Shown piece by piece: positions 3,093 to 55,725 of a stretch of 64,000 nucleotides of DNA (the first letter of the stretch is position 1; every line of letters begins with the position of its first letter). The position numbers were made by a program, and so were the translations under genes. This stretch comes from a phage: sequence record PQ400055.1. One strand, given 5' to 3'. Under the pieces are notes generated by a model. That model was not told where the DNA came from, searched no databases, and saw only the letters and a list, made by a program, of their open reading frames with translations.

Positions 3093-5771
3093 TTAAATGT
3101 CAAACAGGTCAGTCAGAGAAGCAACTTTCTCATATTGCAGCTTTGCAGCCGTGGTAATGTTCTCCAGTGGTTTGACGAAAGTCTTATTAAACAACAAAGG
3201 CCAGTCTAACCACTTTAACACCTCTGATTCAATTTCTGGAGGAATACGAGTACCGGACAACCAACCAAAACAGATTTCTCCAAACGGATTTCGATCTTTC
3301 AGCGGTACAATCATAACCTTCTCGCCCTCACGAATTGGATCTAGTCCGAATTTTCGAGCATTACGATTATAACACAATACACTCTTAACCGCATACGGAC
3401 AACCCTTAATCGGATACCCGTTTGAATCGCTGTATTTCTGTAGGTTGTTTGCAGATGATACCGCAGCAACCTCAAGATAATCAAGTTTTCTAAATTCTTG
3501 CTCAAAAATACCGTAGTATTCCTGCAATGACTCTTCACCTTCCTGCAACATACGGCGAATACATTCTTTCAGTGATTTCTGACATGCTTTAGGGGTGGAG
3601 CTACGTTGCGTTTCCAAGCCCATGATTTTTAGCTTAGGTTCAGCAAAGCGCGTTCCTTCCATATCCCAAACATTAAGAGCATAACGCTTTTTGCCAGTCC
3701 AGAATCCACCGATACCCGCAGATTTCAACGGAGGACCAGCAATTGCCTCACGGTCCATAAACATCAAGTGCTCATAGTTGTTCATGTACTCGCATAACTC
3801 GCGATATCCCTTGTCGATAATAGGTTCCATTCGATGTTTACCGAAATTATCAAGGAAGTCAACAAGTTTTTCGGTATCGTCGAAACGGTCTTCCCCGCCA
3901 ACCTTATCAACAACATTGTTAACCAGCACATAAACGGAGTCAGTATCACAATAACGAACATATGCAAAATCGGTTGTTCCGCAAAGCTCGTTTAAGTATT
4001 CGTTAATCTTACGCTCAATCCACTGAATTGCAAGCTGACCAAACAAGGTGATCGCACTAGCGTTACGGAGATCATAAAAACGGAATTTAGGATTCCCCAA
4101 CGCACCATAAAGGGAGTTGATCAAAACTTTTCGAGAAAGCTGGTTTGTATTGCACAAGATCGACTCGTCTTTACATTCTTCCAGCAATTTCTCTAAGGCA
4201 TCTTTACTTAATTCAGAAAGCATCGATTTAAACGCTTCATCAAAGTCGTGACGTACTTCAACGCTATAGCTAATGGTTCCCCCATAAACATGATTTTCAT
4301 CGTGTAGAATCGCTTTACAGAGTTCAGCATTGCGATCACATGCCAACATCATGTTTTTGTACTGCTTACGCTGATCGAATACCTTTTTAATCTCAATCGG
4401 TACGATACCGTGAATATCTTTTCTATACATCCATCCGTTAGGAGAGCAAGAATACTCATCACTCGGACGTGGTGCAGTTTTATTGATATACTCGTGCATC
4501 GGTGCAGCATCAAAAGATCCGGCGATTGTTTCCGGCGAAATGTTAACCTGTCGAATAATAGATGGGTACAGACTTGTTAAGTCAAAGCTCATCATCCAAC
4601 GGTAAGCATTCGGCACAGGTTCTTTTACGAATGCGCCTGGATACGTCTGCTTAGGCTGTATCTTATTTTCCGGTACTACTTTACCCTCAGCTTTCAGAGA
4701 TCCGAAGATAATAGCATCCCATACTTTCATCGGGTTATAAACATGGTTAAATTTAATCTTTGCATAGAAACATAGACTATACACAAGATCGATAAATCCA
4801 CGCTTTTTATCAATCGCCAGCACACGATCAACGTCGCCGATGTTATAATCGATGTAAAGTTGATGGTTGTCATCACGCAATTTCTTTAACGGACCATCAT
4901 AATCAACCTTACCGATTCCTGTCTCATATTCAGCAACATAATCTAACGCATATGTTGGTTGAGTCGTAAAGCTAAATTTCTTGTACAGGTCAATATAATC
5001 AAGGCTTTCGATCCCCATGATCGTAAATGCTTCACGCTCGTTGCCAAAATCATCCTGTGAGATTCGGGATTTAATCTTACCGCACGGGCTTAGACGGTTA
5101 GCGGTTCTACTTCCGAACTTATTACTGATACGTTTAATGATATATGGAATATCGAATGTTTCTGTGTTCCAGCCAGTGAAACCAACGGGTCGGTTTTCCT
5201 CAAAGAATCGGATGTATTCTAACAGCAATTCATCTTCTGTGTCATAGACGTTATAAACAACGCGCTCTACAATATCAGGTCGAAGAATAGACTTGCTTGC
5301 TTCCCAGATTTCACCGTTTTTTCCCTTCAAATCAAATACAAAGAAACGATCATGTACTGAATCATAATGCGTAATTGCATCGATAGGATATTTCGCTTCT
5401 TCTGGTTTAGGAAATTCTGGGGCAGTGACCTCGATATCAACCCATGCTACACGGATTTTATTTCGGTCATATCGAATCTCTCCTTTATACGTATCAGACA
5501 GATAGGAGATGATAAAATCATCCATCCCTAGCGCCTCTTGCCCCATTTCTCCCATCTTTTTACGCCATTTGTTGGCCTCGTTCATAGAGGGGAATTTTTT
5601 AGCAATGCAAGGCTTGCCATAGATATCTTTATAATTCGTAACCATACCAGGCGCGGCATGATGAAATAAAGTTGGCGTATATTCAACGTAACGCTCTTGT
5701 TCTTGTCCAGCATCATCAATATAACGCTCGTAGATCTTATCACCTACTCGCTCACATGACAGAAAATACAT
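3093..5771 (-). CDS. 43: DNA polymerase gp43 (family B)
   Basis: Track ORF 3093..5801 trimmed to in-frame ATG (M11) with GGAG Shine-Dalgarno; exo motif VDIEV, pol motifs KILINSLYG and YCDTDSVYV; T4 gp43-like throughout. Confidence 0.93.
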   Translation of the reverse strand: MYFLSCERVGDKIYERYIDDAGQEQERYVEYTPTLFHHAAPGMVTNYKDIYGKPCIAKKFPSMNEANKWRKKMGEMGQEALGMDDFIISYLSDTYKGEIRYDRNKIRVAWVDIEVTAPEFPKPEEAKYPIDAITHYDSVHDRFFVFDLKGKNGEIWEASKSILRPDIVERVVYNVYDTEDELLLEYIRFFEENRPVGFTGWNTETFDIPYIIKRISNKFGSRTANRLSPCGKIKSRISQDDFGNEREAFTIMGIESLDYIDLYKKFSFTTQPTYALDYVAEYETGIGKVDYDGPLKKLRDDNHQLYIDYNIGDVDRVLAIDKKRGFIDLVYSLCFYAKIKFNHVYNPMKVWDAIIFGSLKAEGKVVPENKIQPKQTYPGAFVKEPVPNAYRWMMSFDLTSLYPSIIRQVNISPETIAGSFDAAPMHEYINKTAPRPSDEYSCSPNGWMYRKDIHGIVPIEIKKVFDQRKQYKNMMLACDRNAELCKAILHDENHVYGGTISYSVEVRHDFDEAFKSMLSELSKDALEKLLEECKDESILCNTNQLSRKVLINSLYGALGNPKFRFYDLRNASAITLFGQLAIQWIERKINEYLNELCGTTDFAYVRYCDTDSVYVLVNNVVDKVGGEDRFDDTEKLVDFLDNFGKHRMEPIIDKGYRELCEYMNNYEHLMFMDREAIAGPPLKSAGIGGFWTGKKRYALNVWDMEGTRFAEPKLKIMGLETQRSSTPKACQKSLKECIRRMLQEGEESLQEYYGIFEQEFRKLDYLEVAAVSSANNLQKYSDSNGYPIKGCPYAVKSVLCYNRNARKFGLDPIREGEKVMIVPLKDRNPFGEICFGWLSGTRIPPEIESEVLKWLDWPLLFNKTFVKPLENITTAAKLQYEKVASLTDLFDI

Positions 5772-14289: not shown

Positions 14290-14806
14290 AAAATTGGTCC
14301 AAGCTAGGCAATTCCTCGGTCAATACATCTTCAACCTTTGGCGCTTTCGGTTTATTGACCGATTCCTCGTAGTTGTTGATTTTATCGTAAATGTCCTGTA
14401 TGAATGCCTCATCAGCAATCTGGCACATATCAGCGTCGCGTTCGTCATATACATGATGCACAAAATATTTGTATTTTGCGGCTGTCGCTGTTCTCTCTTT
14501 TTTAATGCGCTGTACAAAAGCATTAAAGCACGCTTGCGTGATGTAAGCATGAGGATTTTTATACTTTGTCTCGTCAAAATTAATCAAACCCTTGACCGCC
14601 GCTTCGATTCCGTCGTCGATCATTTCTTCGCGCCACGTTTGACTATAACCAGAAAAGTTAAAACGACGTGATAGATTTTTAGAGATTTGCATAATTGCTA
14701 GGCCGATTTGATCGCTCATTGGAACTTGCCGACCTTCTGCTGCAATTTGTTGTTTCCAACGGCAAATTTCTTCGTAAAGCTCTTTATTGTTTACATAATC
14801 AGACAC
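14273..14806 (-). CDS. 55: late-transcription sigma factor gp55
   Basis: 177 aa; YVNNKEL...RFNFSGY...[29 protein letters not shown] nearly matches T4 gp55; the start codon appears to be GTG. Confidence 0.85.
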
Positions 14807-14846
14807 TTCGCACCCTCGCTATTATTTAGGAAATAACCCTTTCGGG

Positions 14847-16316
14847 CTATTCCCCATTACCATTATACTTTCTTTGCTTAGTTATCCACACTCTAACCAT
14901 CTCTACAGATTCGCCGTCAGACGGATCAAGAGTTTTTCCTTTTTTCTTCATGCGGTACTTAAATCCGTTAAATCTTGCATTCTCTTGCTCGTTAAAGTCG
15001 AACATCTTTTTAAATGATTTTCGCCCTTTACGTTCACCACATTCTAGCGGAATCATTCGATCTGTTATTACATTGGCATTAGGCAGAAACGTTTTTAGAT
15101 AATCCACCAACGCCCAATCAGGAACATATAGATTAACATTCTCCTTGCTCTCGTTGTCTCTCAGGTTACAACGCAAACATAATTGAAATGCTGGTTCCAG
15201 ATAATCAGACACATGACGCGCTTTCAAAAACTCGTTTGTCGGGAGATCACAACTATTAGCAAGACCTTTTAAAATATCAATCTCCCATCGTTGAGGGTTA
15301 AAGCTGAACATCACAGCAACATTTTTATGATGAATGTAAGAGTTAAGACCATAAGACCCGTAAGGTATCCGCTCACCAATACCATTTGTACACGCTTCAC
15401 GGTCCCGATTCACGGTATAAATGAAGTCATCGCCACATTCATTTTTAACCATATCAACAAGACGTTCAAAGGTATTGTTTGTTTCTGACTGGTGACGCGA
15501 CCATCGTTCAGAGTCCGTCATAAGGATGATATTAACTCTATCTGTATTTTTATACTCTTTGAAATATAGTCTGGATTCTAGCGCACTCGGAACAAAATCG
15601 CAATTTGCATAGTATCGTAGATACTTCCCACTATATGTATCAAAGAGATTTGCACATGCTATCGTAACCTTTTTAAAGTCTCCCCACGTACCGTGTTTGT
15701 TATCGTTCAAGAAAACAATTTTCGACCCATTCTTCCGGTGTCCTTCGTTATGTTTTACCATAACGTTGATTTTCTTCTCTAATAACGCCTCATAAAGCCC
15801 TCTAAGAGAAGAATCGATCATATCAGTACCATCCTTCGCACTTTCTATCTTTTCTTTGATAGCGGCCTTCTCAGAGTCTTTTAGAACTAAGTTCTGTAGG
15901 CATTCCGATTCGTCGGCGATTGGTTCGCAATGCTTCGTGATAAGTTCAAGATTAGACTTAAACGGATACTCATTAAATTCAACCAGTTGAGGAACTTCAT
16001 CAATGTAAAGAGCATAATCACCAAACATTTTTGAACGTTCCATATTAGATAACGCTGTATGTGTAATGAATATCACATCAGCACCATCTTTAACTGATTG
16101 CATTATCGACGCTTGCACTGTCTTAAGGCTTCTTAGTCTTGTGCTATCAATCAAGACAGCACGACCGCCCATTCTTTTAAACTTATTGTAAGATTGTTCA
16201 CTTAAAACACGAGATGGCGAAGCAATAACCGCTTTTTCTTTTGTCTCTAGGACGTGGGAAAGTATAGCATCAGTTTTCCCCGCCGCTGGCAATGCGATTA
16301 ATGTTTCAATCTTCAT
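14847..16316 (-). CDS. uncharacterised P-loop NTPase with helicase-like N-terminal domain
   Basis: 489 aa; motif I ALPAAGKT, Ia-like ASPSRVLSEQ, DExx-like LYIDEVPQ; lysine/arginine-rich C-terminus; no T4 core counterpart recognised. Confidence 0.6.
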   Translation of the reverse strand: MKIETLIALPAAGKTDAILSHVLETKEKAVIASPSRVLSEQSYNKFKRMGGRAVLIDSTRLRSLKTVQASIMQSVKDGADVIFITHTALSNMERSKMFGDYALYIDEVPQLVEFNEYPFKSNLELITKHCEPIADESECLQNLVLKDSEKAAIKEKIESAKDGTDMIDSSLRGLYEALLEKKINVMVKHNEGHRKNGSKIVFLNDNKHGTWGDFKKVTIACANLFDTYSGKYLRYYANCDFVPSALESRLYFKEYKNTDRVNIILMTDSERWSRHQSETNNTFERLVDMVKNECGDDFIYTVNRDREACTNGIGERIPYGSYGLNSYIHHKNVAVMFSFNPQRWEIDILKGLANSCDLPTNEFLKARHVSDYLEPAFQLCLRCNLRDNESKENVNLYVPDWALVDYLKTFLPNANVITDRMIPLECGERKGRKSFKKMFDFNEQENARFNGFKYRMKKKGKTLDPSDGESVEMVRVWITKQRKYNGNGE

Positions 16317-48069: not shown

Positions 48070-48726
48070 TTAAATGTTCGCGAGAATCTCGCTTTCAAAT
48101 TCTTCTAATGTGCCATTATTTATGATAACTGTTTCACCGTCAATAGGCAAAATTCCTTTTTCGGTGGAGTGAGTCGATACAATACCAGTATCACGCTGAA
48201 TATGCAACACCTTAGCACCCATAGCACGCATAAGAGCAATTTCAATAGGCTGACGCACATCAACCACTACAAAATACCCTTCTTCATTTTTTCGCTTCAT
48301 AAACTCATTCACGAAGAGATTACACCAATAAAGCGGATTGATCAAGTTAACCATTATATCAGTACCGAGAGTGGTTAACATGAGACGAATAGACCAGACG
48401 TTATTATGTTTTTCGCCAATCTCATTAACGACCTTGTAAATCTCAGCCAGACGATCACAAGTAAAGGAACTACCGCCATACTTCGAATCTAGCATAAGCA
48501 GACACTGAATAAACCACTTATGCGCGGTATAGGTATCAATACCTAGATCGGCTTCTCTGTCACGCCCTAACCCGTCAAAGTCAAGATAAGTCAGACCTAA
48601 GTCTGGTTGACATTCGCACAATATTTCTTTGATCGGTGCTGCCAGTTGATAACTATGTCCATCAATGATTAACGCGGCAGTGTCTTTTCCTACTCGCTTT
48701 TTACCACAAAGTGCAATCAATTTCAT
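48070..48726 (-). CDS. 1: deoxynucleoside monophosphate kinase gp1
   Basis: 218 aa; P-loop CGKKRVGKDT; ...GTDIMVNLINPLYW... resembles T4 gp1. Confidence 0.8.
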   Translation of the reverse strand: MKLIALCGKKRVGKDTAALIIDGHSYQLAAPIKEILCECQPDLGLTYLDFDGLGRDREADLGIDTYTAHKWFIQCLLMLDSKYGGSSFTCDRLAEIYKVVNEIGEKHNNVWSIRLMLTTLGTDIMVNLINPLYWCNLFVNEFMKRKNEEGYFVVVDVRQPIEIALMRAMGAKVLHIQRDTGIVSTHSTEKGILPIDGETVIINNGTLEEFESEILANI

Positions 48727-48741
48727 TATATAAGCCTCTTA

Positions 48742-49332
48742 TTACTTTCTAAAAGCAGGGTGCATAGCTTTAATACCTTCCACCCTCTGACGATCCGCCG
48801 CCTGAATTGCTGGGCGAGGAACGATCAGTTGACCATCACGTTCAATGCTCATTGTTTTAAAGGGAAGAATTGCAGTACACACCAGAGATTCATGCATATC
48901 ATCGGTGTATGTTAACTCAAGTTCCCCCAATTGTGAACACCAACAACCATAAAAGTTAAAAGTGCACACAATGTTACGTCGTTCGTTGTCCATCATGTGA
49001 ACTTGAACGGCTTCCGGCATTGAATCCTTCCACGATGTGGAGTTACCGTTATTGTAGTCTACTATAGAAAGCATCCATGTGTAAAGGTTTAGATAGCTTT
49101 CCAAATGCTCATCAACGATAAACCGGACTACCAACGGGTCAAACTCCACATGACTAGACGGATAATCAGCGACCGCCAAACCATATTGACCAGCAACTTG
49201 CTTAGTCGGTGGAATGGTTATAGCCGGAAGTGTAACACCTTGACAGTTTAAAGTAAAGCCTTTTGTTAGTTGACCATCTGGAATGGCAATCTGCCAGTTG
49301 CTAGGGTTAGCATAGTTAAAGAGATTGGACAT
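48742..49332 (-). CDS. 3: tail completion/sheath stabiliser gp3-like
   Basis: 196 aa ORF in the gene 3 position between 1 and 2; assignment by synteny and size. Confidence 0.5.
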   Translation of the reverse strand: MSNLFNYANPSNWQIAIPDGQLTKGFTLNCQGVTLPAITIPPTKQVAGQYGLAVADYPSSHVEFDPLVVRFIVDEHLESYLNLYTWMLSIVDYNNGNSTSWKDSMPEAVQVHMMDNERRNIVCTFNFYGCWCSQLGELELTYTDDMHESLVCTAILPFKTMSIERDGQLIVPRPAIQAADRQRVEGIKAMHPAFRK

Positions 49333-49362
49333 TACGATTCCTTAAATGAAAATATTTATCAA

Positions 49363-49896
49363 CTAAAAATTTAAACTAGCATAATCTCCAAAATGTTCCT
49401 TTGCTGCTTCGTCATAAGCCTTTGCAGCATCAACTTCGTCAAGAAAGACGCCCAAATGGACCTTTCTACGATTGATTGATATCTGAGCACACCATTTGTT
49501 ATTCTGTGTTCTAATCACTCCTTTATACTTACTCTTACAACCATCAAGTTTTCCGCGATTGAACGCATTTTCCTGAGAAGTGGATTCTCTCAAGTTATCC
49601 GGTGCATTATTTTCTCGGTTTCTATCTACATGGTCGATCATTTTAACTTGCGTACCATGTTCAAGATACCAAACAACCCTATGAACTTTAATGACCAAAG
49701 AATAGCCATCACTGCGCCAAAACTTAAAACATAGATAACCTCGACTATTTTTATAAACTTTAACCGGGTCTCCTGCCTTATACCATCGACCATTCTTTCC
49801 ACTATCTTTCAAATGATACAATATACCATTAACGTGTTTATACTTATCTCTAATTTCTTTTTGTGTAAAATCATCCCACATCTTAAAACCAGACAT
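49363..49896 (-). CDS. HNH homing endonuclease with AP2 DNA-binding domain
   Basis: 177 aa; HNH core IDHVDRNRENNAPDNLRESTSQENAFN; C-terminal AP2-like KYKGVIRTQNNKWCAQISINRRKVHLGVFLDEVDAAKAYDEAA. Confidence 0.75.
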   Translation of the reverse strand: MSGFKMWDDFTQKEIRDKYKHVNGILYHLKDSGKNGRWYKAGDPVKVYKNSRGYLCFKFWRSDGYSLVIKVHRVVWYLEHGTQVKMIDHVDRNRENNAPDNLRESTSQENAFNRGKLDGCKSKYKGVIRTQNNKWCAQISINRRKVHLGVFLDEVDAAKAYDEAAKEHFGDYASLNF

Positions 49897-49929
49897 ACAT
49901 TTTCTCCTGATATTATTAATAACAACATC

Positions 49930-49958
49930 AATCTAACACATCCAGTATATAATGTCAA
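49930..49958 (-). promoter_or_regulatory. possible sigma70 promoter for the HNH gene (TTGACA-17-TAGATT)
   Basis: Good -35, weak -10; adjacent short hairpins GTCGC-aaa-GCGAC and GTGCC-tac-GGCAC. Confidence 0.25.
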
Positions 49959-50113
49959 TTGTCGCTTTGCGACGTGCCGTAGGCACTGACTACTTTTTAA
50001 CCGAAACAAATTTTTATTATTCTAAAGATCTTTCTTCGTTTTGGTTATGTTTTAACCAATAACTATATTTTTATACAGTAATAAATAAAACTGGTACTAT
50101 ACGAGGACTTCTT

Positions 50114-50368
50114 ATGACAGAAGACATTTTGTTAAAACTCTATGATCGTCTGGATAACGAATTAGCAACATTGCGGGGTGAAGTTCTCTATTTGTCTAAA
50201 TGCAATACAGATCTGCTTAAGCAGATTGCAGAAAGGGATGATCAAATAAAATCCCTTTCAGGTGCATTACGTGATCGCGACAAGGCATTAGAGATTTTAC
50301 AGCGTGTTACCAATAAGGAAGAATTAAAAGACTTCTTACATGGTTATGCTCATGCCATCGATCTATAA
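50114..50368 (+). CDS. hypothetical coiled-coil protein
   Basis: 84 aa plus-strand ORF with ATG and GAGGA upstream, followed by a bidirectional terminator. Confidence 0.45.
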   Translation: MTEDILLKLYDRLDNELATLRGEVLYLSKCNTDLLKQIAERDDQIKSLSGALRDRDKALEILQRVTNKEELKDFLHGYAHAIDL

Positions 50369-50369
50369 T

Positions 50370-50398
50370 AAAAAAGCCCGTCAATGACGGGCTTAATT
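50370..50398. terminator. bidirectional rho-independent terminator
   Basis: GCCCGTC-aat-GACGGGC hairpin flanked by an A-run and a T-run between convergent ORFs. Confidence 0.6.
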
Positions 50399-51430
50399 TT
50401 AATATGTATCAGCTAATTTAATTATGTTATCAAGTTCCGTGATTGTTAAAGTTTCTGTGTATCCATCTTTCAACATGGATTTATCAACAACGCCACAATG
50501 ATAAGTTCTCTTTATTTCCTTTTCAAGTTCCCACGGAATCCAGCCATCAACACTTTGTTTGACGTAAACAAGTTTGTGAACAAACTTAGATTTCTGCATA
50601 TGTTGTTTCATTCTGGTTTCCGGTAATTCATTGGTTACACCAAACTTTATAAATTTATCATCTAACGTCTGGATATAAAAATATCCCATCTCAGATGGAC
50701 GATAGCCAGAAGAACTACATTTCGGACACCCTTTAGATCTATGGCCATCAAAAGTACAAAATCTAACAGAAAACTCCTGATTGTGTTTATTGCACTTCAT
50801 TTTCAACCATGATTTATCAGATCCTATCCATCCACCATCAAATTCAATAAAACTATAATTTAATTGGTCGCATCTTTCAATTATTCGTTTAATAGCCACA
50901 CTTTCTGGTAACAAGTGTGTTGTCTTTTTACTTTCGTTTACACATTTCTTACAACCACATGTTCCACACTTCGTGAAGTTAAAGAATTGTGTGTTCTTCC
51001 AAATATGGTTATGTTTCTTACATTTTAATATCATTTTAGTAGTGACGTGCTTCCACGCACCAACAAAACCTAAAAATTCATAGTTTAATTCCTCACATCT
51101 TTCTTTTGCTATTTTAATAGCGTCTTCTTCTAGTAAAGACCCGTTACACTGCGGACAGCCTACTATAACCTTTTTACCATAGAAACTATTGCTAGAAACA
51201 TCATAGACAGACCCATGCTTATTGCATTGGATAACAGATCTAGTCAATTTTCCTTTCCATTCTCCAGAAAATCCTAAGAATGTATGGTCGACAAGTTTAC
51301 ACCTTTCAATAACTTTATCCGCAAATTCTCTAGGAGATTTTGTTACTTTGTTTACTCTATATTCTATTTCTTCCGGTTGACGAAGATCATAAACGTGGGG
51401 ATTGCTCCCCACGGAATTAATATTACGCAT
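50399..51430 (-). CDS. putative GIY-YIG/T5orf172-like endonuclease with three tandem zinc-finger-like repeats
   Basis: Start at internal ATG (M35); three repeats of IERC..LNY.F.GF.G.W.G...KC.KH with CxxC pairs; C-terminal GYFYIQTLDDKFIKFGVTNELPETR..H resembles the GIY-YIG superfamily. Confidence 0.5.
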   Translation of the reverse strand: MRNINSVGSNPHVYDLRQPEEIEYRVNKVTKSPREFADKVIERCKLVDHTFLGFSGEWKGKLTRSVIQCNKHGSVYDVSSNSFYGKKVIVGCPQCNGSLLEEDAIKIAKERCEELNYEFLGFVGAWKHVTTKMILKCKKHNHIWKNTQFFNFTKCGTCGCKKCVNESKKTTHLLPESVAIKRIIERCDQLNYSFIEFDGGWIGSDKSWLKMKCNKHNQEFSVRFCTFDGHRSKGCPKCSSSGYRPSEMGYFYIQTLDDKFIKFGVTNELPETRMKQHMQKSKFVHKLVYVKQSVDGWIPWELEKEIKRTYHCGVVDKSMLKDGYTETLTITELDNIIKLADTY

Positions 51431-52244
51431 CTTTCCACACCTTCCTTGCATCGTAATTTTTGCCCTTTGACAAGAAACGGAACGTTGGCATGAATATGAC
51501 ATTCCCCCAGTCTTTCGGGCTAATCTCAACAAGTTTTGTTTTAATGTGTCCCGGTAGATATGCTTTGATCATGTGATCACTTCCACGCATACCTTTTACA
51601 TCGCTCCATTTGATTTTTAAGCGTGTTTTATTGCTCAAGGTAGGAGTAGATGCATATTGCTTTAAAAGTGCCTCTAAAAACTGCTGACGGGCTTTAGGAG
51701 TTACATAGTGTAAGTTAAGACCCAACATTACAGTATTACCCGCCTTTGTCTTAGAATCACCCAGACAAATGATCAGCGGGAAAACATCCCAATATGGCAA
51801 AGTGTCTTTATACTTCGCATCATACATAAAGGTATAGATTCGACCTACTTGCGGTTTTACAATCTGGTGTCCCTTTATTCCCGCTTTTATTGTTTTAGTA
51901 AACCACTCCTGTGATTTTTCTTTAGGACGACTCTTTGATACAGCACGCATAGACGCACGAAAATCATTAATCATCATCATTGCGCGTTGCTGCTTATTGA
52001 GACCCTTTGCGCCTTTCCCTTTTAGTTTTTCAACTTCTATTGCTGTTTTAATTTCGCTGGCATAACGAGACATACTTTTAGTGAAAGTCGCATAGGCTAT
52101 TCCCTTAGAATCTGCAAATGCTTTAGCTGTCATTCCTTTGGCTTTTGCTTTCGCAAATTCTACACCCAATTCGACCCACTGTTTAGACTTTCGTTTTTGG
52201 GGAGACGGCTTTTCGTCTTCTGTGATTATTTCAAATACGCTCAT
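51423..52244 (-). CDS. 2: DNA end-protector protein gp2-like
   Basis: 273 aa ORF at the gene 2 position with matching size; basic. Confidence 0.6.
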   Translation of the reverse strand: MSVFEIITEDEKPSPQKRKSKQWVELGVEFAKAKAKGMTAKAFADSKGIAYATFTKSMSRYASEIKTAIEVEKLKGKGAKGLNKQQRAMMMINDFRASMRAVSKSRPKEKSQEWFTKTIKAGIKGHQIVKPQVGRIYTFMYDAKYKDTLPYWDVFPLIICLGDSKTKAGNTVMLGLNLHYVTPKARQQFLEALLKQYASTPTLSNKTRLKIKWSDVKGMRGSDHMIKAYLPGHIKTKLVEISPKDWGNVIFMPTFRFLSKGKNYDARKVWKDA

Positions 52245-52255
52245 AATATTATCCT

Positions 52256-52729
52256 CTATTTGTTAAGCCCTTTAAAGCCAAACACTTTCTTTAATGCATG
52301 TTCGGTGATGATCTTAAACTCCATGTTATGCTTTTGGCATAATTTCACGGCAGCTAACCATTTTTCAGTATTTTTTGTGTACGTCCACACTTCATGCATA
52401 TATCGTTGCTTTGTCTTTGCGGTCATTCTTTTTGGCTTTTCCGGTGGCCTTGTCTCTTTAGCTGGTTTAACTTCCCATAAATGCTCCTTGCCATCATCAA
52501 ACTTAACGTAAAAATCCATAAAGTATCTGTGTCTTTTCCCGTCTGTTGATGACTCATAAGGAATTACTACGGTCTCAGATCCCCATTTTGCAACTCTAGG
52601 ATTGCGGTCTAGCCACTGCATGATCCATCTTTCCCAGCTTGAACGGTATGTGATCTTACGTATATCCCCTTTATACTTTTCCTTATTCTCAGGAACATAC
52701 TTGCCCTTATAAGTGTTAGATCCTCCCAT
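52256..52729 (-). CDS. 4: head completion protein gp4-like
   Basis: 157 aa ORF divergent from gene 53; synteny and size. Confidence 0.6.
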   Translation of the reverse strand: MGGSNTYKGKYVPENKEKYKGDIRKITYRSSWERWIMQWLDRNPRVAKWGSETVVIPYESSTDGKRHRYFMDFYVKFDDGKEHLWEVKPAKETRPPEKPKRMTAKTKQRYMHEVWTYTKNTEKWLAAVKLCQKHNMEFKIITEHALKKVFGFKGLNK

Positions 52730-55158: not shown

Positions 55159-55725
55159 ATGGTTGAAATTCTTCCGATGAGTTCAAAATTGGAGGATATC
55201 AGCGAGCGAGAAATCTTTGAGGTGGTGTTCTCTTATAAAGCAACGCCACCGGATGCAAATACCACATACACGATTAAAGAGTTTAAGATCAGCGAGTATC
55301 GCCCTAATAAGGGCGTTACCGTTGAAGAAACTAAAATATCTGGTGAGTATCGGGATAGTTTTTCGCTTGGCGCGGATTCTCTTAAATATATAACGAAAGA
55401 TAGAATTAAAAAATCTGCCGGAAGTTTTGATGATTTACCAGATCCAACTACCGCAGATCTATATTATTTTAACGCTCCTACACGTCTACAGGAGGTTTAT
55501 ACTTATAAAGTAACCCTAACCTATATCCAATCTGTTTCAGAGTCTTCTGGCGGTTCTGGTGAAGGAAATAGTGGTGGTTCCAATAGCCGAGAGGGTGCTG
55601 GTGAAACTAATCCGCCTCCGGTAGTAACAGAACACACAATAGAGAAAGTTTATACTCAAACCGTTTTTGGAAATTGGGATGTGTGGAGTAAACAGTTAAG
55701 AGATTATGTACATAGGGGTGTTTAA
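55159..55725 (+). CDS. gp5.1-like baseplate-associated protein
   Basis: 188 aa ORF between 5 and the PAAR gene; Gly/Ser-rich linker. Confidence 0.5.

Follow-up and report, generated by a model that had tools for sequence, protein, structure and literature searches.

Two homing endonuclease genes flanking a resident gene in the gene 3–gene 2 interval of a Krischvirus genome

How did two endonuclease genes and a small open reading frame (ORF) come to lie between gene 3 and gene 2 of a T4-type phage? The question is raised by positions 49363-51430 of a 64,000-nucleotide stretch of sequence record PQ400055.1 (hereafter, the window), which belongs to a T4-type coliphage of the genus Krischvirus (RB49/Phi1/JSE group). 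A first-pass annotation had described this region as a homing endonuclease hotspot in which an HNH-AP2 endonuclease, a small plus-strand ORF, and a large repeat protein were all inserted between the two genes and disrupted their junction. The three ORFs lie exactly where that annotation had placed them, but the loci of related phages lead to another account of their origin. We consider it likely that a W115-like Krischvirus backbone acquired, between its genes 3 and 2, two free-standing homing endonuclease genes (HEGs) that are unrelated to one another and entered separately, and that these now sit on either side of a resident gene for an 84-amino-acid protein.

Two insertion sites and their occupancy among relatives

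A megablast search with positions 48700-52300 returned 59 phage records, every one of them Krischvirus, at identities of 90-99%. All occupancy tallies given below refer to these 59 records in the phage collection, with GenBank/RefSeq duplicates counted. Gene names were taken from the annotation of near-identical phages (for gp3, from Phi1, W115, phiS, and AV108 at the homologous place). Two insertions were delimited by BLAST breakpoints and junction sequences, and they are arranged among the features of the interval as follows.

48742-49332, minus strand: gene 3 (gp3, tail completion / sheath stabiliser), from the ORF and relatives' annotation; resident flank of the HNH insertion
49215-49363, no strand given: diverged tract at the gene 3 5' end and leader, common to all HNH-carrying genomes
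49364-49955, minus strand: HNH insertion, 592 bp
49363-49896, minus strand: HNH-AP2 free-standing HEG, 177 amino acids, with the HNH domain at 49552-49698 and the AP2 DNA-binding domain at 49366-49536
50114-50368, plus strand: ORF84, resident gene for an 84-amino-acid predicted coiled coil (Phi1 ORF130, PHROG 17832)
50374-50394, both strands: bidirectional intrinsic-terminator hairpin AAGCCCGTCAATGACGGGCTT, serving ORF84 (plus) and gene 2 or the CapR gene (minus)
50402-51425, minus strand: CapR-T5orf172 insertion, ~1024 bp
50399-51430, minus strand: HEG with three CapR repeats and a T5orf172/GIY-YIG domain, 343 amino acids counted from the ATG at 51430
51423-51506, minus strand: diverged tract, the last 84 nucleotides of gene 2, which travels with the CapR gene
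51423-52244, minus strand: gene 2 (gp2, DNA end protector), from the ORF, relatives' annotation, and Pfam Phage_T4_gp2; resident flank

The two HEGs are distributed independently of one another. The interval holds only gp3, ORF84, and gp2 in W115, GEC-3S, and RB49, whereas the CapR gene occurs without the HNH gene in Phi1, ECD7, and others, and phiS has the HNH gene alone. AV108 carries the HNH gene together with a different CapR-T5orf172 gene after gp2, whose 380-amino-acid product has four CapR stretches and a T5orf172 match (0.0075) and is 28% identical to the 343-amino-acid protein of the window. The HNH insertion is missing from Phi1, W115, ECD7, FL37, and GEC-3S, and the HNH gene is found in 2 of the 59 records. 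At the site after gene 2, three CapR-T5orf172 lineages alternate: the Phi1 type (2 records), the ECD7 type (9), and the four-repeat JSE/AV108 type (5), the site being empty in ~43 records. That close relatives differ in this way in the occupancy of one exact site is a mark of HEGs. The window joins the HNH gene to a Phi1-type CapR gene, an arrangement seen in none of the 59 records, and is a new combination of known genes on a W115-like backbone.

Because ORF84 is carried by all 59 records at an identity of at least 95%, including loci that have neither endonuclease gene, it is a resident gene that lies outside both insertions. Comparison of the gene 3–gene 2 junction with related phages therefore bears out the insertion of the two endonuclease genes but not that of the small plus-strand ORF. 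The amino acid identity of ORF84 is at least 99% in 53 of the 59 records, and its protein sequence is the same in six of seven loci compared, with one D-to-E change in phiS. It matches PHROG 17832 (2e-57) and nothing outside Krischvirus. The gene is oriented against its neighbors, with TAATAAATA just before it, and the terminator that follows is annotated on both strands in GEC-3S.

No gene is interrupted, and the two endonuclease genes lie in intergenic positions, contrary to the disruption that had been proposed. The HNH insertion is found upstream of gene 3, 31 bp from the ATG; it directly adjoins a late-promoter-like AATAAATA/GATAAATA box and has a 13-nucleotide degenerate duplicate of the target at its right end. 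The CapR insertion separates the gene 2 stop codon from the terminator, and its junction can be placed only within ~10 nucleotides because an imperfect TTAATnTTA repeat bounds the insert. The ATG of the CapR gene overlaps the end of gene 2 (GATGCGTAA). Exact copies of the T4 late-promoter box TATAAATA are no commoner in the window than expected (4 against 5.5), which leaves only the 7-of-8 look-alikes AATAAATA/GATAAATA, and the late-promoter calls for gene 3 and ORF84 are therefore weak.

Domain make-up of the two endonucleases

The 177-amino-acid protein is an HNH-AP2 endonuclease, as had been recognized from the letters. It matches Pfam HNH_3 (PF13392) at 2.8e-13 and PHROG 99 'HNH endonuclease' at 6e-46, and has both the catalytic His/Asn and the beta-beta-alpha-metal fold of HNH_3. 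Its AP2 match (PF00847; 8e-4, 20.1 bits) falls under the gathering score of 33.3, but PF13392 and PF00847 are both present in homologues, and the fold (a three-stranded sheet plus helix) occurs together with the signature YKGV..LG.F..E.DAAKAYDEAA, which is kept in the HNH-AP2 alignment. Residues H72, R73, D88, H89, N97, N101, and N110 are likewise conserved in this alignment. A protein deposited from AV108 as a 'homing endonuclease' (WPK33562.1) is 100% identical in amino acid sequence and occupies the same genomic position. One further feature lies at the right end of the insert.

49930-49958, minus strand: sigma-70-like promoter match TTGACA-17-TG-TAGATT, a consensus match only

This match could possibly drive the HNH gene. 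Its perfect -35 element is formed across the right HNH junction, with TTG contributed by the flank and ACA by the insert, and it is followed by a 17-nucleotide spacer and the TG-extended TAGATT. NCBIfam holds no model for either endonuclease, and no paralogues of the three proteins were found in the 64-kb window with tblastn.

The larger endonuclease gene is divided into the following segments.

51341-51430, minus strand: N-terminal extension
51140-51340, minus strand: repeat 1
50918-51139, minus strand: repeat 2
50708-50917, minus strand: repeat 3
50402-50698, minus strand: nuclease domain

The CapR homology domain (PF21817) matches three stretches of the 343-amino-acid protein (2.4e-10; 40.9 bits against a cut-off of 24.2) and is also matched by all 17 of its homologues, and the protein matches PHROG 681 'endonuclease' at 5e-77. 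The repeats are ~70 amino acids long, have pairwise identities of 31-36%, and all carry the motif ERC...F.GF.G.W...CxxH...GCxxC. Their metal pairs are C69xxH72...C92xxC95, C137xxH140...C160xxC163, and C213xxH216...C235xxC238. The first residues of the paired motifs are 22-23 apart, in an arrangement of the CapR kind (CxxC...CxC, 24-26 apart). Thus, the three tandem CxxC-containing repeats of the first-pass annotation are present as three CapR stretches, but the predicted metal site is CxxH plus CxxC, with His as the second ligand, rather than two CxxC.

The triple-repeat architecture had been called unusual, but multiple repeats are the norm in this family (PMC10448857), as the four stretches of AV108 also illustrate. 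A phmmer search with the 343-amino-acid protein found 2010 cluster representatives at E<=0.001, 513 of them at <=1e-10, many of the listed matches cover most of the query, and the homologues bear CapR, DUF723, and DUF4379 repeats. The repeats may reasonably be viewed as a modular DNA-recognition array, an idea that had already been proposed (PMC10448857). Searches of PDB sequences with the protein and with its family profile gave no meaningful match, and Foldseek found no PDB match at E<=0.001 for the whole model. Its only hits were weak look-alikes, tandem double-stranded RNA-binding domains that have the alpha-beta-beta-beta-alpha topology of each repeat in common. No solved structure matching a CapR repeat emerged from these searches.

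For the nuclease domain, the profile threshold was a match to PF10544, PF13455, or PF01541 above cut-off. The 343-amino-acid protein has no match to T5orf172 (PF10544) and reaches only E=0.042 for GIY-YIG (PF01541; 14.6 bits, cut-off 22.6). Among its 17 full-length homologues, 11 match T5orf172 (best 7.7e-5) and 7 match MUG113 (PF13455; best 2.7e-6). The protein has the GIY-YIG fold, and the catalytic Tyr, Arg, and Glu are in register, with Y252, R273, and E303 almost unchanged across the aligned family. Y252-11-F263-10-R273 has the spacing of Y6-Y17-R27 in I-TevI, and Phe263 (within K-F-G) replaces the second Tyr of the GIY-YIG motif, as in T5orf172. The matches of homologues to T5orf172 and MUG113 and the near-invariance of the three residues at the expected spacing give indirect support to the assignment of the C-terminal ~100 residues as a T5orf172/GIY-YIG-like domain.

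Phi1 ORF130.1 (YP_001469475.1, 'endonuclease') is 99.4% identical in amino acid sequence to the 343-amino-acid protein and occupies the same genomic position. The ratio of nonsynonymous to synonymous substitution rates (dN/dS) of the CapR gene is 0.07-0.16 in the repeat part and the nuclease part alike. Therefore, the gene is being maintained by purifying selection and is not decaying.

The Phi1-type and ECD7-type alleles of this gene are mosaics of one another. They are nearly identical over nucleotides 1-240, in the region of the N terminus and repeat 1, and over 720-1038, but they are ~33% different over 240-720 (repeats 2-3). Likewise, dS reaches saturation (~2.1) in repeats 2-3, whereas the nuclease domain has a dS of 0. 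The two alleles go with different haplotypes of the gene 2 end. The mosaic matches the domain shuffling reported for T5orf172 HEGs (PMC10448857). We offer only tentatively, as a rather unlikely proposal, that exchanging repeats 2-3 redirects the enzyme to other DNA sequences, for example such that one allele would cut the flank of the other. If so, the locus would be a compact natural system in which to read out the recognition rules of CapR zinc-finger arrays, for which this analysis found neither a recognition code nor a solved structure.

The beginning of the CapR gene contains a second hairpin.

51394-51413, minus strand: GC-rich hairpin CGTGGGGAGCAATCCCCACG followed by TTTAT, 17 nucleotides inside the endonuclease ORF and 10 nucleotides past the gene 2 stop

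This hairpin has 8 bp with a GGGG..CCCC core, is identical in the diverged ECD7/FL37 allele, and may attenuate read-through from gene 2 into the endonuclease gene. A start for the CapR gene downstream of the hairpin was considered and rejected because there is no in-frame start codon there. The hairpin also resembles the stem-loops of the PeSL elements (sigma-70 promoter plus stem-loop) described for phi1/RB49 (PMC2839356). We rejected it as the mark of a PeSL cassette, as it has neither an adjoining promoter nor a second copy. A family of 19-nucleotide direct repeats (50860-50878, 51085-51103, and 51417-51435) was also observed. Two of the copies code for the 'ERCxxLN' with which CapR repeats 3 and 2 begin, and the third (51417-51435, 15/19) forms the junction of the gene 2 stop and the endonuclease start, a position that scores 14/19 by hand count in the empty W115 site. 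This family could be accidental, could have provided microhomology when the gene first entered, or could be left over from a fourth repeat.

Flanking tracts and the explanations weighed

Both inserts adjoin a short stretch of diverged sequence, a feature that also marks HEGs. On the gene 3 side, 14 of the 20 differences between the window and W115 (in 1164 nucleotides) fall in the last ~150 nucleotides by the HNH insert (binomial P ~6e-9). The window, phiS, and AV108 have common variants in this tract (GAATGGCAATC versus GAATATTGATC, among others), and one amino acid of gp3 is changed (N16A). In gene 2, the last 84 nucleotides hold 23 of the 28 differences from W115 (in 822 nucleotides; P ~1e-18), and seven amino acids are changed. 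A metagenomic relative that is ~15% diverged throughout carries the same CapR gene at the same site, and the Phi1-type gene 2 end is native to it. Since this haplotype is native in so diverged a carrier, the 84-nucleotide tract looks like an imported donor flank. We interpret the gene 2 tract (51423-51506) as such a flank, which probably confers target-site immunity, and the gene 3 tract (49215-49363) as a putative co-conversion or target-immunity tract. Diverged tracts beside both inserts are the signature of homing with co-conversion, and together with the occupancy states they support well the proposal that this is a homing endonuclease hotspot. The tract in AV108 gene 2 (3400-4221 in the AV108 stretch) beside the JSE/AV108-type gene is ~480 nucleotides long, with 12-25 differences per 60 nucleotides, and is thus much longer than the 84 nucleotides by the Phi1-type gene.

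The composition of the backbone was followed over 22 kb in 300-nucleotide bins. W115 is closest to the window in many bins, whereas the window is AV108-like across 48500-50300 (~3 differences in 1800 nucleotides) and Phi1-like across the CapR gene.

The proposed route of entry would begin with a mixed infection in which one phage is without the endonuclease gene. The endonuclease would bind a sequence in or beside the empty site. For the HNH enzyme, the AP2 domain would do so near the gene 3 5' end or leader, and for the T5orf172/GIY-YIG enzyme, the three CapR zinc-finger repeats would do so near the gene 2 3' end. It would then nick or cut at the bound site, and T4-type recombination-dependent repair would copy the endonuclease gene plus a short donor flank into the broken genome. 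The carrier genome would be protected because its own flank has diverged. For both HEGs, we infer enzyme activity, cut sites, and flank-tract immunity from the sequences. What the comparison itself shows are the identities of the domains, the intactness of the catalytic and metal-binding motifs, the purifying selection, the insertion boundaries, the variable occupancy, and the flank tracts with their donor-like origin.

Some observations weigh against this double entry by homing. The 343-amino-acid protein itself stays under the Pfam thresholds for T5orf172 and GIY-YIG, its second GIY-YIG Tyr is Phe263 (albeit usual for T5orf172), and the diverged tracts could be the work of ordinary mosaic recombination that ends at the insert rather than of endonuclease-initiated repair. 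Another account starts from the documented domestications in this family, namely the CapR repressor (PMC8096241) and the anti-satellite nuclease Odn (PMC8263062). One or both proteins might be kept because they benefit the phage, as a repressor like PLE CapR or as a weapon against satellites or competitors like ICP1 Odn, which would agree with the strong purifying selection over the whole CapR gene. However, an active homing gene is also expected to be under purifying selection, and most close relatives do without these genes, given the empty state of ~43 of 59 gene 2 sites and the 2 of 59 records with the HNH gene. Furthermore, the sites that the genes occupy are just those with diverged flank tracts, and three lineages alternate at one of them. 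Patchy presence, tracts, and alternation are typical of selfish HEGs, and we therefore regard domestication as unlikely.

Entry as passive cargo, by PeSL-type shuffling or illegitimate recombination at short repeats or stem-loops and with no part played by the nucleases themselves, is judged slightly less likely still. It draws on the TTAATnTTA repeat that bounds the CapR insert, the GGGG..CCCC hairpin at its gene 2-proximal end and the terminator hairpin at the other, the 13-nucleotide duplicate at the right end of the HNH insert, and the likeness of the 19-nucleotide motif at the gene 2/HEG junction to an internal ERC-coding motif. PeSL recombination is, moreover, the explanation that Arbiol et al. 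2010 (PMC2839356) give for most phi1/RB49 indels. Nevertheless, neither insert has a complete PeSL on both sides, as only the single hairpins (51394-51413 and 50374-50394) and one promoter match (49930-49958), with no pairs, were found. The locus also lies in a conserved structural module and not in a hyperplastic region, both genes are predicted to encode intact site-specific nucleases, and highly diverged flank tracts are the product of double-strand-break repair from a diverged donor. The drop in G+C content to 0.31-0.35 over 49800-51200, compared with ~0.40 in the flanks, is what might suggest the single three-gene insertion across the gene 3–gene 2 junction with which this analysis began. 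That picture, now extremely improbable, is refuted by the loci of the relatives. All of them, even those with empty loci, have ORF84 and the terminator, the two endonuclease genes occur independently, and genes 2 and 3 are both full length in the window. Independent entry of two HEGs by homing thus remains the explanation we prefer.

Genes beyond the two resident flanks were placed as follows.

48070-48726, minus strand: gp1 (ORF)
52256-52729, minus strand: gp4 (ORF)

Elsewhere in the genome, gp5.1 and gp5.4 of W115 are separated by an HNH homing endonuclease gene of 741 bp (14477-15217 in the W115 stretch) that the window lacks. The gp5.1 and gp5.4 ORFs of the window abut at 55725, exactly where divergence from W115 rises to 18 per 300 nucleotides (bin 55700), and this junction is a second endonuclease-linked polymorphic site. 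The bins 40100-40400, 43400-43700, and 44600-44900, which fall among the small ORFs upstream of gene 57B, show 25-85 differences per 300 nucleotides or no match when compared with Phi1, AV108, W115, or phiS, and they are probably further indel or mosaic hotspots.

Relation to known homing systems

Most elements of this locus have published counterparts. T5orf172 HEGs with repeated CapR/DUF723/DUF4379 zinc fingers, described as 'beads on a string', have been surveyed by Barth, Dunham & Seed 2023 (PMC10448857), who proposed modular target recognition, with recombination between repeats and between genes. The same study places T5orf172 HEGs beside essential genes, also describes HNH-AP2 HEGs, and notes that homing by the T5orf172 family still awaits experimental test. 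The PLE satellite repressor CapR has been recognized as a DNA-binding domain domesticated from ICP1 T5orf172 endonucleases. It needs its cysteines to bind DNA, and it alone has been demonstrated to bind DNA in a sequence-specific manner (PMC8096241). Nuclease activity has been demonstrated for the T5orf172 protein Odn of ICP1, which is inactive as E180A (PMC8263062) and has the same Arg and Glu as the 343-amino-acid protein (R273 and E303). The phi1/RB49 comparison (Arbiol et al. 2010, PMC2839356) names neither ORF130.1 nor this locus.

A close likeness exists to the ICP1 HEGs (gp174, gp165, gp121, and others; Barth 2023, Netter et al. 2021), which have the same CapR-type array followed by a C-terminal T5orf172/GIY-YIG domain. 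Like the CapR gene of the window, they are free-standing, lie beside essential genes, vary among near-identical phages, and exchange the DNA-binding region between alleles as mosaics. Unlike them, the gene described here resides in a Krischvirus T4-type coliphage lineage, its product has a CxxH...CxxC metal site rather than CxxC...CxC, and it scores below the Pfam T5orf172 threshold.

T4 SegA-G and I-TevI have the same GIY-YIG-superfamily catalytic domain, with Tyr...Arg...Glu at I-TevI-like spacing, and the Seg genes are likewise free-standing, intergenic, and co-transcribed with their neighbors. In contrast, the nuclease domain of the 343-amino-acid protein is C-terminal rather than N-terminal, and a zinc-finger repeat array takes the place of the NUMOD/helix-turn-helix module for DNA binding. 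For SegF and SegG, marker exclusion accompanied by co-conversion of polymorphisms in the flanks is the established mechanism (Liu et al. 2003). The 177-amino-acid protein has the same order of HNH_3 and C-terminal AP2 as I-HmuI and the phage/cyanobacterial HNH-AP2 homing endonucleases (cited in Barth 2023), but it is free-standing, whereas I-HmuI is intron-encoded.

The value of the locus is that of a clean case study, with exact boundaries, tracts of 84 and ~150 nucleotides, a plausible donor lineage, and three competing lineages. The W115-, Phi1-, and ECD7-type gene 2 ends offer ready-made substrates for a first test of T5orf172 homing. HNH-AP2 proteins, repeated CapR-type T5orf172 proteins, placement by essential genes, and the idea of modular recognition were all published before. 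Phi1 ORF130.1 and AV108 WPK33562.1 were deposited as endonucleases, and no record of the phage collection has both together. Because both proteins of the window are 99-100% identical to deposited, annotated endonucleases of published architecture, the locus is an ordinary, well-documented example of homing by known families and not a new kind of element.

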